Positions 54,504 to 64,000 of a stretch of DNA of 64,000 bases are shown in pieces. This DNA comes from Patescibacteria group bacterium. GTDB taxonomy: Bacteria; Patescibacteriota; Minisyncoccia; Phycocordibacterales; SBAW01. The position numbers and the translations under genes were made by a program. The notes under the pieces were generated by a model, which saw nothing but the letters and a program-made list of their open reading frames with translations, did not search any database and had not been told where the DNA came from. Position 1 is the first letter of the stretch. Every line of letters starts with the position of its first letter. The DNA lies in the NCBI GenBank assembly GCA_019752125.1, contig JAIEMM010000012.1, positions 3,437 to 67,436 on the forward strand, in the 5' to 3' direction.

Positions 54504-54593
54504 GGAGAGGTGCCAGAGCGGTCGAATGGAGCAACCTGCTAAGTTGTTGTCTGGGAAACTGGACCGAGGGTTCGAATCCCTCCCTCTCCGCCA
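54504..54593 (+). tRNA. tRNA-Ser, anticodon GCU, CCA encoded
   Basis: GGAGAGG/CCTCTCC acceptor, 3-bp D-stem, anticodon loop CTGCTAA, 18-nt variable arm, T-arm GAGGG-TTCGAAT-CCCTC, G discriminator + CCA. Confidence 0.85.
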
Positions 54594-54595
54594 GG

Positions 54596-54662
54596 ACAAT
54601 TTTTTATCGGCATGACCCGCAGTGTTGCGAGCAAGCTGTGACCCGAGTGCCTAAAAAATTGT
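54596..54662. repeat. inverted repeat (acaatttttta / taaaaaattgt, 11-bp arms) directly 3' of tRNA-Ser: candidate att site
   Basis: Arms flank a 45-bp GC-rich core between tRNA and recombinase. Confidence 0.35.
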
Positions 54663-54665
54663 AAC

Positions 54666-54696
54666 AAAAAAGAACGATTTCGATCGTTCTTTTTTG
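54666..54696. terminator. bidirectional terminator (gaacgat-ttcg-atcgttc with A- and T-runs)
   Basis: Read directly; serves the tRNA and the convergent recombinase. Confidence 0.7.
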
Positions 54697-54702
54697 TTTA
54701 CT

Positions 54703-61211: not shown

Positions 61212-61216
61212 ATCGT

Positions 61217-62077
61217 ATGACTAACACCCACGCAGAAATTTTCGTCACAAAAGCGTCCGGGGAGCAGGAACCGTTCTCAGAAATGAAACTGCGTCGCTCG
61301 CTCGAACGTGTGCATGCGTCGTCAGATGCGATTGATGCAATCGTCGCGCAAATCAGAGCTGAACTACAGGAAGGGATGAAGACGGCAGATATATATCGCA
61401 AAGCTTTCGCGTATCTCCGAAAAAAGAGTCGGCCGGTCGCGGCTCGCTACAGTTTGAAAAATGCGCTCATGGAGTTGGGTCCGACAGGCCGCCCGTTCGA
61501 GCATTTTGTTGGTGAGCTGATGAAATTTGAAGGGTTTGATGTCGAGGTCGCGAAGATAGTACCGGGTGTGTGCGTAAAGCACGAAGTCGATGTGGTCGGT
61601 ACTAAGGATGACCGGCACGTAATGGTCGAATGCAAGTTCCATAACCGACCAGGGCTTCGTTCCGACGTAAAGATTTCCCTCTACGTGCAAGCACGGTTTG
61701 AGGACGTCGAGCGTCGATGGAAAAAACAGCCGCAGCACGGCGAGAAATTCCACGAAGTATGGCTCGTCACAAACACAAAACTCACGTCCGATGCGACTGA
61801 CTATGCGAAATGTGTCGGCATGACCGCGATTGGTTGGAGTTACCCGCAAGGTAATAGTCTTGAGAACCGCATCGAACGTGCCGGGCTTCACCCCATTACC
61901 TGTCTCACAACCCTCACGCGCTTTCAAAAGAACGCTTTGATGCAGAAAGGTATCTATTTGTGCAAAGAATTACTTCTGCGTGCAGATGTTTTATCGTCCG
62001 TTGGTGTAAAGGGAGATGCTGCTGAGAAAATTCTTAACGAAGCGCAACAGCTTTGCCAGAAAACAAAAGAGGTATGA
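61217..62077 (+). CDS. ATP-cone-like N-domain + Mrr-like PD-(D/E)xK nuclease domain protein
   Basis: VDVVG.KDDRHVMVECKFH restriction-endonuclease-like motif. Confidence 0.45.
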   Translation: MTNTHAEIFVTKASGEQEPFSEMKLRRSLERVHASSDAIDAIVAQIRAELQEGMKTADIYRKAFAYLRKKSRPVAARYSLKNALMELGPTGRPFEHFVGELMKFEGFDVEVAKIVPGVCVKHEVDVVGTKDDRHVMVECKFHNRPGLRSDVKISLYVQARFEDVERRWKKQPQHGEKFHEVWLVTNTKLTSDATDYAKCVGMTAIGWSYPQGNSLENRIERAGLHPITCLTTLTRFQKNALMQKGIYLCKELLLRADVLSSVGVKGDAAEKILNEAQQLCQKTKEV

Positions 62078-62820
62078 AGAATACAATTATCATTGTAGTA
62101 ATCGGTGTAGCTGTGCTTGGTAGCATTGGGTACTTTCTTTTTGGGAAAAATAAGGATGCTGATATCCCCACATCTCAATCCAGTGAAGCGGAGGAGATTG
62201 TAGTTTCTCCCCAGGAAGCACGCACAAGTGTCAGCATAGATTCAGCAACGCTTACTAAAGGCGGCTATGTTGTTGTGCGGGGCGGTGATGGCAAGAGGAT
62301 TGGCCAAGTTATTGAGATCAGTAGCTATCTTCCACCTGGTACACATACAAACATTACAATCGAGCTCGGCGAGTTTTACCCGTACAACCAAGAGGATCAG
62401 CTTGTCGCGATGATCTATCGCGATGATGGCGATCAATCATTCAGTGAACTCGACGTGCCTGTGGACACCTCTGCCATATTTGCCAAAACCGGAGCTCCCG
62501 TACCGCTTTCGATATTTGCAGAGCAAATTGCGCCAAGCGATGGCATGGGAATGGTAACGGTTCGATATACCGATGCAGGTTTTCAGCCCGCAAAACTCAC
62601 CATTCCGGTCGGCACGATGGTGGAGTTCATAAATCAAAGCGGAAGCGAGATGTGGGTCGCATCGAATATACATCCATCGCACGAGATATTGCCCACATTT
62701 GATCAATTCAAAGGAGTCGCAAAGAATAAGGGCTATATGTACACCTTTGATAAAAAGGGCTCATGGCCCTATCACGACCACATCAATCCGGCACTCGAAG
62801 GAGTAATAGAGGTCAAATGA
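62074..62820 (+). CDS. membrane-anchored cupredoxin-like domain protein
   Basis: RBS aaaagagg; C-terminal TMVEFINQSGSEMWVASNIHPSHE...WPYHDHINPALEG cupredoxin-like pattern. Confidence 0.5.
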   Translation: MKNTIIIVVIGVAVLGSIGYFLFGKNKDADIPTSQSSEAEEIVVSPQEARTSVSIDSATLTKGGYVVVRGGDGKRIGQVIEISSYLPPGTHTNITIELGEFYPYNQEDQLVAMIYRDDGDQSFSELDVPVDTSAIFAKTGAPVPLSIFAEQIAPSDGMGMVTVRYTDAGFQPAKLTIPVGTMVEFINQSGSEMWVASNIHPSHEILPTFDQFKGVAKNKGYMYTFDKKGSWPYHDHINPALEGVIEVK

Positions 62821-63074
62821 TTATGATGGATCCAAAACAAAGAGCTCTCAATAGTGTTATGCAGGTCGGGCTTGTCGGTTTTACGATGCTCGGTTTTTTG
62901 CTCACGTCGTTGAAGTTGCCTGAGTATGGCCTTATTGCAAATCTGGTCTCGGAAGTTTTCTGGCTCTACAGCACGTACAAGGCCTGGAAAGAAGCGAATC
63001 AAGTGGGCATGTTTATAAACACGCTCATTGTGACAGCGATCCTCATCTTTGGAGTTATCAACTATTGGCTATAA
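62817..63074 (+). CDS. small 2-TM membrane protein
   Basis: ATG overlaps upstream stop (ATGA). Confidence 0.35.
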   Translation: MIMMDPKQRALNSVMQVGLVGFTMLGFLLTSLKLPEYGLIANLVSEVFWLYSTYKAWKEANQVGMFINTLIVTAILIFGVINYWL

Positions 63075-63078
63075 TGTT

Positions 63079-64000
63079 ATGAACCACAACCACCACAATT
63101 CTGAAGAAACCCGCTACACGTGCCCCATGCACCCAGAAGTGGTGAAAAACTCGCCAGGCAAATGTCCGGGTTGCGGCATGGAGCTTATTCCAGTCTCCGC
63201 TAAAGCTACAGCGGGCAAAGCTACAAAGAAGTCGTCTGATCCTCACGCCGGACACGATATGCAGAAGATGAGCCATATGGATCACGAGGCAGCAATGACA
63301 AACCCCGCTATGGCCAAAAAGATGGAGGCCGACATGCGCCGCCGCTTTTGGATATCGCTTATTCTCTCCATTCCAATTTTTCTCTACTCACCGGTTGGTA
63401 TAAACTTTTTTGGTCTCAATCTTCCAACGCCGATTCCGGTAAGTTGGATTCTTTTAATCCTCACAACACCAATCGTTTTCTGGACTGGCTCGATATTTAT
63501 TACCGGCACGTACTACTCGCTCAAGGCCCGCGTCCTGAATATGTCAGTCTTGATCGCAACCGGCGTCCTCGCGGCGTACCTTTTCAGCGTGCTACTGACC
63601 TTCATACAGCCTGAAAGCGAAACATTCTATGAAGCCGCAGCGCTTCTGGTTACATTCGTGCTCTTTGGCCATTGGATGGAGATGAAATCACGTCGCGGCA
63701 CATCGGATTCGCTCCGTGCCCTATTTGATCTCGTACCGCCGAAGGCAAGCGTGATTCGCGATGGAAAGGAGCTTTCCATTCCGAGCGCGGAAATTGTGCA
63801 GGGCGACATTGTTATGTTGCGACCTGGCGACAAGGTACCGGTAGACGGTGAGGTGACAGAAGGAGAAAGCTCGATCGACGAGTCGCTTGTTACCGGTGAG
63901 TCGATCCCTGTTATCAAGAAGTCCGGCGATAAAGTTGTCGGGGGGTCGGTCAATCTCACAGGCGCTGTGCGTTTCAAGGCTACAAAAGTGGGATCTGATA
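63079..64000 (+). CDS. heavy-metal (Cu-type) P1B ATPase, N-terminal part (3' end outside window)
   Basis: N-terminal YTCPMHPEV...GKCPGCGM metal-binding domain, TM helices, actuator domain (...TGES.PV.K..GD.V..G..N); open frame to window end; not in ORF track because no stop. Confidence 0.85.
   Translation, partial: MNHNHHNSEETRYTCPMHPEVVKNSPGKCPGCGMELIPVSAKATAGKATKKSSDPHAGHDMQKMSHMDHEAAMTNPAMAKKMEADMRRRFWISLILSIPIFLYSPVGINFFGLNLPTPIPVSWILLILTTPIVFWTGSIFITGTYYSLKARVLNMSVLIATGVLAAYLFSVLLTFIQPESETFYEAAALLVTFVLFGHWMEMKSRRGTSDSLRALFDLVPPKASVIRDGKELSIPSAEIVQGDIVMLRPGDKVPVDGEVTEGESSIDESLVTGESIPVIKKSGDKVVGGSVNLTGAVRFKATKVGSD

Follow-up and report, generated by a model that had tools for sequence, protein, structure and literature searches.

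The 64-kb stretch of contig JAIEMM010000012.1 analyzed here (the window, to whose positions all coordinates without another label refer) comes from a bacterium of the candidate phyla radiation (CPR), a member of the Parcubacteria in which the identity of malic enzyme, FtsH and RecG to their counterparts in Adlerbacteria and Kaiserbacteria metagenome-assembled genomes (MAGs) does not exceed 74-76%. Its features were read mainly from 54504-64000, where a gene for tRNA-Ser(GCU) is followed by a gene encoding a large serine recombinase (LSR) and then by a cluster of metal-related genes that runs to the end of the window. The tRNA genes were called with ARAGORN and Rfam. Protein domains were assigned with Pfam, NCBIfam and sequence searches against the Protein Data Bank (PDB), and PADLOC was used for defence systems. 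The comparative set consists of 125 loci gathered around LSR homologues, and the labels L001-L210 denote the loci or contigs that were compared.

The tRNA-Ser(GCU) gene (54504-54593, plus strand; anticodon GCT) is intact, encodes its own CCA, scores 55 bits against Rfam RF00005 and is almost identical to the tRNA-Ser(GCU) of an Adlerbacteria contig (L001). Its last six nucleotides, CCGCCA (54588-54593), form the discriminator-CCA end and are common to attP-type and tRNA-type junctions, so that the crossover must fall within them. Directly beyond is a 69-nt spacer (54594-54662) which, read on the minus strand, is an attP-derived P arm of about 70 nt with the exact family motif CATGCCGATAAAAAATTGTC at 54595-54614. 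This 20-nt motif occurs exactly once in the window, where 0.01 occurrences are expected by chance, and because that single occurrence lies precisely between the LSR and the tRNA, the adjacency of the two genes is not a matter of chance. Between the P arm and the 3' end of the LSR gene is a hairpin resembling an intrinsic terminator, with a 16-bp stem (54663-54698, minus strand), which is retained in L085, L086, L089 and L092. The LSR gene, the terminator and the P arm run directly into the terminal CCGCCA of the tRNA. Judged by its sequence, the tRNA gene is the B' half of an attachment junction, and an LSR-borne element is very probably joined to the 3' end of tRNA-Ser by a genuine integration junction.

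A sequence-only reading of this DNA had placed a large serine recombinase beside the 3' end of tRNA-Ser. The domains of the protein and the attP arm agree with this, with the correction that the gene is on the minus strand and convergent with the tRNA. That reading had also proposed a search for a direct repeat of the tRNA 3' end, and none is present in 40-64 kb. A long repeat of this kind is the wrong expectation here, because with an LSR the repeat would be restricted to some 5-6 bp (CCGCCA), together with a P' arm that resembles a T-arm.

The LSR gene (54703-56034, minus strand) is intact and encodes a protein of 443 amino acids with the domains PF00239 (Resolvase), PF07508 (Recombinase) and PF13408 (Zn_ribbon_recom), all above the Pfam cut-offs. 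Its YARKST motif, which includes the presumed catalytic serine, aligns with that of SPbeta YokA, and the protein distantly matches the structures of the SPbeta integrase YokA/SprA and of the TP901-1 integrase (E ~1e-11). Upstream of the gene is a conserved leader of about 70 nt (56035-56103, minus strand), whose first bases on the LSR strand are AGTTACCAAC. At the nucleotide level, the window resembles each of its relatives only over 54563-56104/56110, that is, over the tip of the tRNA, the spacer, the LSR gene and the leader.

Homologues of this LSR are numerous (more than 8000 below E 1e-20), and amino acid identity is 80-98% for the best 120, which come from hosts including Niyogi-, Levy-, Yanofsky- and Kerfeldbacteria; more than 100 LSR protein clusters at 80-98% identity are distributed across these CPR lineages, and 34 IMG/VR contigs carry a homologue as well. 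In the L081 contig, the LSR is 94.6% identical to that of the window, compared with 56% for RecG. Judging from such alignments, the LSR is far better conserved between hosts than the housekeeping genes of the same contigs. Relative to the LSR of L092 (97.5% amino acid identity), there are 11 nonsynonymous and 132 synonymous codon differences, and across the closest relatives four-fold sites differ by 0.37-0.53, whereas only 11-24 codons change the amino acid. This low nonsynonymous divergence alongside high four-fold divergence implies strong purifying selection and a transfer of the LSR that is younger than the divergence of the hosts. The codon comparison also indicates that the window LSR is not a very recent arrival.

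A more distant homologue lies in a Nomurabacteria chromosome (CP060229, L021; 12420-14400), where tRNA-Ser(GCT) is followed by a frameshifted LSR gene with 42% identity in its N-terminal part. That gene is flanked by inverted repeats of about 135 nt (12504-12637 and 14262-14398), and another pair of 200-nt inverted repeats, 3.1 kb apart, occupies 14402-17922. The arrangement may reflect decay, an inversion switch or a structure resembling an insertion sequence.

The attachment sites of the family can be read from 40 distinct P-arm junctions. In 28 of the 40, the P arm lies within 2-4 nt of the 3' end of a tRNA called by ARAGORN; 27 of these tRNAs are tRNA-Ser (anticodons GCT 8, CGA 6, GGA 6, TGA 6 and 'ACT' 1) and the remaining one is tRNA-Asp. 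A further four junctions are cut by contig ends inside tRNA-like sequence. One element, recognized by its identical LSR protein (P0036) in three samples, is seen in two junction states. Two of the contigs (L087 and L088) read TTGTCTTGGCGG followed directly by AGAGGGAGGGATTCGAACCC, which is tRNA-Ser, and the third (L086) reads TTGTCTTGGCGG followed by TGATCTCGGGTTAAGTACCCGTGACC, which is the P' arm. The contigs are identical through TTGGCGG and diverge directly after it, which implies that the crossover falls inside TGGCGG, the reverse complement of the CCGCCA of the tRNA. Beyond this core, the P' arm as defined from L086 has the T-arm-like form GCGG-N7-GGGTTAAGTACCC (reverse complement GGGTACTTAACCC-N7-CCGC), and in complete elements, too, (T)GCGG stands before the distal P'.

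On the LSR strand, P' (the exact 13-mer or a close variant) precedes the LSR by 284-9377 nt in L093, L098, L116, L124, L142, L148, L160 and L165. It is thus on the 5' side of the LSR in all eight elements in which it is detectable, with the LSR and P arm forming the tRNA-proximal edge. Complete elements, bounded by P' on one side and by P and tRNA-Ser on the other, were found in L116, L124, L142, L148 and L160 and measure 3.8-13 kb; that of L160, with P' only 284 nt from the LSR, is near-minimal. The content between P' and the LSR varies and includes an AEP-primase/helicase, an amidase, a transglycosylase with a glycosyltransferase, and PPDK-like enzymes. The commonest neighbours of the LSR across the family are a ParB-N6_N4 methyltransferase, a small protein and a Terminase_6N-like protein. 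Cargo can also lie between the LSR stop codon and the P arm, which are 89-6145 nt apart.

An exact-pattern search of IMG/VR returned no juxtaposition of P, core and P', and P' alone was found in one contig, which was previously known. It may therefore be that the L086 and L179 junctions are junctions between tandem elements and not free attP sites; the inference on the crossover is unaffected. Tandem LSR elements are present at L086 11341-14514, at L089 11338-14410 and in L179/L180 (IMGVR_UViG_3300000970_000154), where the P-core-P' junction is directly followed by another LSR or another ParB-methyltransferase module. This suggests repeated integration at an already occupied site. ARAGORN also reports several tRNA-Ser genes with the anticodon ACT, which is unusual in bacteria (L085 11445-11532, L092 12232-12319, L115 11432-11521, and L117). 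Each is near another tRNA-Ser and an LSR junction, and in L085 and L117 the ACT tRNA itself abuts the P arm.

The sharply bounded leader, which is present 5' of every LSR (17 loci), contains CACTYGGG-like motifs that are found again in the P arm, and it could function as an operator or accessory binding site. A mini-element consisting only of the LSR, with the leader end at AGTTACCAAC (56103) as its att junction, was considered and rejected. Neither a GCGG core nor P' precedes the leader in any of the 17 loci, and in terminase-bearing loci the leader sits within the intergenic region between TerL and the LSR.

The two junction states, the complete two-ended elements and the 27 tRNA-Ser junctions argue for a large LSR clade specialized on tRNA-Ser. 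It seems reasonably likely that this is a very large and previously undescribed family of serine-integrase elements, distributed across the CPR/Patescibacteria, that inserts at the 3' termini of tRNA-Ser genes of all isoacceptors, crosses over within CCGCCA, has a P' arm that mimics the T-arm, and shuttles small and variable cargo, repeatedly including copper cassettes, among distantly related CPR lineages.

On the other side of the window LSR are 13 plus-strand genes (56129 to the end of the window) in which metal and thiol-redox functions dominate. The sequence-only reading had listed a series of metal-handling genes on this strand, and all of them were recovered. The first encodes a Met-rich membrane protein (56129-56584, with an alternative ATG at 56168), which is divergent from the LSR, matches no family and has homologues of 42-43% identity at the same position in L208 and L210. 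A terminator-like hairpin (56599-56623) follows it. Next is a membrane-anchored DsbA-like thiol-disulfide oxidoreductase with a CPFC motif (56654-57379; Thioredoxin_4, E 4.9e-26; DSBA, E 5.8e-14) and a polytopic membrane protein with an intramembrane CAAC motif (57383-57931), whose pairing with the DsbA-like gene is conserved in L208 and L210. These are followed by an anchored Cys-rich protein with CC, CCCKC and DGCGG motifs (57928-58500; 79% homologue in L210), an anchored His/Met-rich protein (58506-58961; 95% identical over 130 amino acids in L210 and 74% in L208), and a signal-anchored beta-propeller of the YVTN/YncE type (58979-60124; PF21783 and TIGR02276 above the cut-off), whose best non-self homologues are 76-77% identical. 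The Met-rich, CAAC, Cys-rich and His/Met-rich proteins had no match in Pfam, NCBIfam or PDB, and the same holds for the small membrane protein described below; PADLOC likewise gave no family for the first four.

The second half of the cluster begins with a gene encoding a CsoR/RcnR-family repressor (60185-60457; PF02583, E 1.4e-24), which is followed by a small DUF2933 membrane protein with a His-rich tail (60457-60672; PF11666, E 7e-12). An AAA_28 P-loop NTPase (60678-61211; PF13521, E 1.3e-32) has a 69% homologue beside CsoR and CopA in L208 and recurs in related CPR copper clusters. Its neighbour combines an ATP-cone with an Mrr_cat (PD-(D/E)xK) domain (61217-62077) and has only marginal PADLOC matches; the pair of AAA_28 and ATP-cone/Mrr proteins gave no convincing match to a defence system in PADLOC. 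The next gene encodes an anchored protein with a DUF7282 domain (E 3e-18) and a cupredoxin-like domain (62071-62820). The earlier description of this protein as cupredoxin-like agrees with weak similarity, including weak matches to amicyanin and copper nitrite reductase; however, the Cupredoxin_1 match (E 1.2e-4) is below the Pfam cut-off and no Cys ligand is seen. A small membrane protein with two transmembrane (TM) segments and no family assignment (62823-63074) precedes a P1B-type ATPase, the CopA of this cluster (63079-64000). The window end cuts the ATPase, leaving the N-terminal 307 amino acids, which include an HMBD with CPMHPE, the first TM segments and the actuator domain (HMBD, E 4.8e-12; E1-E2_ATPase, E 7e-30). 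The closest homologues of this N-terminal region (P0121-P0240) are mostly partial at contig ends or frameshifted (as in L206 7691-10118), and a Margulisiibacteriota MAG has an annotated CopA with 87% identity. The gene may be affected by breaks in the assemblies, by differences between strains or by transfer.

The cluster appears to consist of two modules. Module A (56.1-60.5 kb), with the DsbA-like/CAAC pair, the Cys-rich and His/Met-rich proteins and the YVTN propeller, is a CPR unit conserved in L208 and L210. By inference from its gene content, it could serve extracytoplasmic thiol and metal handling, perhaps in the upkeep of extracytoplasmic thiols and metal sites. In module B, the open reading frames (ORFs) from 60185 to beyond 64000 (csoR, DUF2933, AAA_28, ATP-cone/Mrr, DUF7282-cupredoxin, membrane protein and P1B ATPase) are packed or overlapping, and this tight packing implies a single operon. 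Upstream of the repressor gene, over a -10 element (TATAAT), is the CsoR-box-like sequence ATACCCCCATAGGGTAT (60159-60175), which is the only perfect ATACCC-N5-GGGTAT palindrome in the window. The canonical CsoR box TACCCC-N4-GGGGTA had no match, and the N5-spaced version did. Similar boxes (ATACCCCCTAGGGGGTAT) precede the copper cassettes of L081 and L092. In the model that these features suggest, the repressor would bind the palindrome, metal binding would derepress the operon from csoR to copA, and the operon would end in an efflux ATPase of the P1B-1 type.

In an alignment with CsoR and RcnR as references, the putative ligands of the repressor are C33, H58 and H62 (NHLSTH). This corresponds to an x-C-H-H fingerprint, which is shared by the repressors of L206, L208 and L210; x-C-H-H repressors lack both the C-H-C of the copper type and the N-terminal His of RcnR. 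A 78%-identical homologue of the ATPase in L206 has the N(x)6YN(x)4P and MxxSS motifs of Cu(I)/Ag(I) transporters, and the related cluster of L208 additionally has a multicopper oxidase. Copper is the best-supported metal, and these motifs and neighbours make Cu(I) homeostasis the likely function of the cluster.

The region as a whole would be the tRNA-proximal end of an integrative island that an LSR put into the extreme 3' end of tRNA-Ser(GCU). The metal cluster would occupy the cargo position, having either arrived with the LSR element or been assembled within one. By topology and by analogy with related elements, it is likely that the metal cluster is cargo of the LSR island, with a probability of roughly 0.55. 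The topological argument is that the Met-rich gene starts 95 nt from the LSR start codon, nearer than the shortest distance between P' and an LSR (284 nt), and the cluster should for this reason be cargo. The analogy comes from copper genes linked to close relatives of the LSR. In L081-83 (LSR 95% identical), a copper cassette consisting of CsoR, CopA, HXXEE, DsbD_2/HMA, a 129-amino-acid protein and a multicopper oxidase is located between the LSR stop codon and the P arm with its tRNA-Ser(GCU), and hence inside the element. In L092 (LSR 98%) and L115, the cassette is divergent on the 5' side of the LSR, as in the window, and in L093 (LSR 95%) it is downstream of the LSR in a contig where no P arm is reached. 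These copper-linked elements use different tRNA-Ser isoacceptors in deeply different hosts. Occupation of the site also varies among relatives. In L001, L003, L005 and L020, tRNA-Ser(GCU) lies near the malic-enzyme and RecG genes without an LSR or metal genes and is followed by unrelated housekeeping genes; these relatives are distant, with a malic-enzyme identity of at most 74%. In L021, the site carries the frameshifted LSR homologue.

A number of observations weigh against cargo status or against copper. The P' arm (as a 15-mer of the GGGTTAAGTACCC type with up to three mismatches) occurs 0 times in the 64-kb window and the distal junction is unseen, although, in a source contig of 72,438 bp, it may lie beyond 64000. 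The composition of 56-64 kb is ordinary, with tetranucleotide z values of 0.1-1.4, a GC content of 0.48-0.52 and an unremarkable GC skew, the last of these a check that the sequence-only reading had suggested. The nearest non-self homologues of the metal proteins are only 72-88% identical (76-77% for the YVTN protein and 75-88% for the CopA N-terminus), compared with 98% for the LSR. The segment 56549-60456 is collinear at 75% nucleotide identity with a Minisyncoccota contig (L210), in which it follows tRNA-Thr(GGT) and has no LSR or P arm, and shuffled metal clusters without an LSR occur in other CPR contigs (L206, L207 and L208). Homologues of the ParB-methyltransferase, of the TerL-like protein and of the HTH_17 excisionase-like protein were not found in the window by tblastn, and no recombination directionality factor was identified there. 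As for the metal, the repressor is without the Cu(I)-type x-C-H-C that those of L081 and L092 possess, the sites of the ATPase selectivity motifs (CPC in TM4, N(x)6YN(x)4P and MxxSS) fall beyond coordinate 64000, and neither a CopZ-like chaperone nor a multicopper oxidase is present. The earlier claim of a horizontally acquired copper (or other soft-metal) island thus stands as far as the junction and a horizontally moving LSR are concerned, while the cargo status and extent of the cluster are unproven and its metal selectivity is an inferred one.

The absence of a P' end from the window, the lack of a compositional signal, and the LSR-free occurrence of module A beside tRNA-Thr and of shuffled clusters elsewhere are also what speaks for a resident, chromosomal copper cluster that happens to adjoin a solitary or decayed LSR element, one that has lost the part from P' to the leader or from which only the LSR module was acquired. 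The metal proteins diverge from their nearest homologues to an extent similar to that of housekeeping proteins (at most 76% identity), the unit shared at high identity comprises only the LSR, leader and P arm, and L160 demonstrates that near-minimal elements exist. However, all eight elements with a P' have element DNA directly 5' of the leader, and even at the 284 nt of L160 the element would extend into the Met-rich gene here. Among the five LSRs that are closest to one another (at least 95% identical), those of the window, L081, L092 and L093 are linked to copper genes and only that of L085 is not, which would be an odd coincidence given their different hosts and tRNA-Ser isoacceptors, and the LSR, being under strong purifying selection, is no decaying remnant. 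A resident cluster is therefore a possible explanation, and the less likely one.

The LSR could instead be the integrase of a temperate CPR phage, with the plus-strand genes as auxiliary genes, since most family members adjoin a ParB-N6_N4 methyltransferase, a small protein and a Terminase_6N-like gene, and since homologues are present in the IMG/VR contigs. This is improbable for the window, where Pfam scans of 14 genes and tblastn with element-typical proteins revealed no homologues of terminase, methyltransferase, capsid, tail, lysis or excisionase proteins, and where all 13 plus-strand genes encode proteins of metal handling or redox chemistry or membrane proteins without assignment. Moreover, complete elements of the family measure just 3.8-13 kb, and several are without any phage genes. 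More improbable still is the reading in which the protein is a housekeeping invertase or resolvase and its place beside tRNA-Ser an accident. Some homologues are named 'DNA invertase Pin-like' by JGI, and the frameshifted homologue of L021 is positioned between inverted repeats; there are no inverted repeats around the window LSR gene, and its full LSR architecture with Recombinase and zinc-ribbon domains, the conserved arm that abuts tRNA-Ser in 27 independent junctions, and the element seen in two junction states are at odds with a chance neighbourhood. Cargo of an LSR island remains the preferred reading of the metal cluster.

Elsewhere in the window is a second LSR of 537 amino acids (44625-46238, plus strand), which has all three LSR domains and is 23% identical to the first. 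Its gene stops inside that for tmRNA (46120-46494, minus strand), at the 3' end of the latter, in the same convergent geometry as that of the first LSR and tRNA-Ser. Upstream of it are an HTH protein, an AbiV/HEPN protein (42943-43638), a LOOT RNA (42766-42886) and a LexA/S24-like repressor (41824-42507). The interval 40-46 kb is the sole compositional outlier in the window, with a GC content of 0.39-0.44 and tetranucleotide z values of up to 3.5, and it is probably a second LSR island, located at tmRNA. No relatives of the second LSR were found in IMG/VR. Its position hints that such targeting is a general trait of the organism.

Between the malic-enzyme gene and tRNA-Ser (53060-54500) are three ORFs (53107-53499, plus strand; 53573-54043 and 53997-54386, minus strand) accompanied by terminator-like hairpins, in a segment with a GC content of 0.53. 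These ORFs have no Pfam or PADLOC match and no homologue in related loci, and synteny with relatives is already lost directly after the malic-enzyme gene. A borderline Rfam tRNA match at 26127-26193 (29.6 bits, compared with a gathering score of 29) was not called by ARAGORN.

A tRNA-linked island with adaptive metal cargo is of a kind already known; what differs here is the recombinase, a serine recombinase at a tRNA gene. The copper cluster, likewise, is an ordinary type of adaptive cargo, yet one with uncharacterized conserved extracytoplasmic proteins and an unusual x-C-H-H sensor. The comparative data give a consistent picture of attP, attB, attL and attR for an abundant clade of CPR serine integrases. 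If this picture is correct, the clade would be the first well-supported natural LSR clade that targets tRNA genes, and it would supply ready-made attP/attB pairs for organisms that lack genetic tools, with tRNA-Ser genes as landing pads in the CPR. It also makes testable how an LSR recognizes the end of a tRNA gene, and whether copper resistance and other traits move in this way among ultra-small symbiotic bacteria.

In its architecture, the window LSR resembles SPbeta SprA/YokA and the recombinases of TP901-1, A118, phiC31, Bxb1 and SCCmec (CcrAB), which have the same three domains and are encoded at the edge of their elements beside an att arm; its similarity to LSRs of solved structure is weak (E ~1e-11). 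As in known LSR elements, there are no long direct repeats at the junctions, just a short common core. To our knowledge, characterized LSRs integrate into protein-coding genes or intergenic sites. The clade described here differs in that all of it uses the 3' end of tRNA-Ser, in all isoacceptors, with a P' arm (GGGTTAAGTACCC) that mimics the T-arm. A literature search on LSRs in combination with tRNA and CPR or Parcubacteria found no paper in the collection searched. Among the 297 serine-integrase islands of a survey that covered 2168 genomes, 14 (a share given as 4.9%) used tRNA or tmRNA genes, which was described as new and as still requiring proof (Mageeney et al. 2020; PMC7192596), and in a later survey tyrosine integrases were again dominant at tRNA sites (PMC10484663).

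The proposed island of the window shares several features with the tRNA islands of tyrosine integrases, among them insertion at the 3' end, an intact tRNA, an adjacent integrase gene and variable adaptive cargo. Targeting of tRNA genes is a hallmark of tyrosine integrases, and tRNA-linked islands such as the P4-like islands, or phage mv4 at tRNA-Ser, are textbook cases. Unlike these, the window element encodes a serine recombinase, and no Phage_integrase match was found among the flanking ORFs scanned. Nor is the 15-50-bp direct repeat of the tRNA 3' end expected or found. The crossover falls within CCGCCA, in the last bases of the gene.

The metal genes, for their part, are reminiscent of CsoR-CopA(-CopZ) operons such as Bacillus subtilis copZA and Mycobacterium tuberculosis cso, in which a CsoR-family repressor and a GC-rich palindromic operator over the promoter are followed by a P1B ATPase. 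In contrast to those operons, the sensor is x-C-H-H and not x-C-H-C, CopZ is absent, and the N-terminus of the ATPase is an HMBD (CPMHPE) and not an HMA domain. The window operon also adds DUF2933, AAA_28, ATP-cone/Mrr and DUF7282-cupredoxin proteins, together with the upstream module of DsbA, CAAC, Cys-rich, His/Met and YVTN proteins. Among CPR clusters, that of the window shares the order of module A with L210, and the DsbA, CAAC, His/Met, YVTN, CsoR and AAA_28 genes with L208, both of which are without an LSR. Unlike the cassettes of L081 and L092, it lacks HXXEE, DsbD_2 and a multicopper oxidase, and its CsoR and CopA are 54% and 35% identical, respectively, to those of L081. The copper clusters of L081, L092, L093 and L115 are nevertheless linked to the same LSR clade, as is that of the window.

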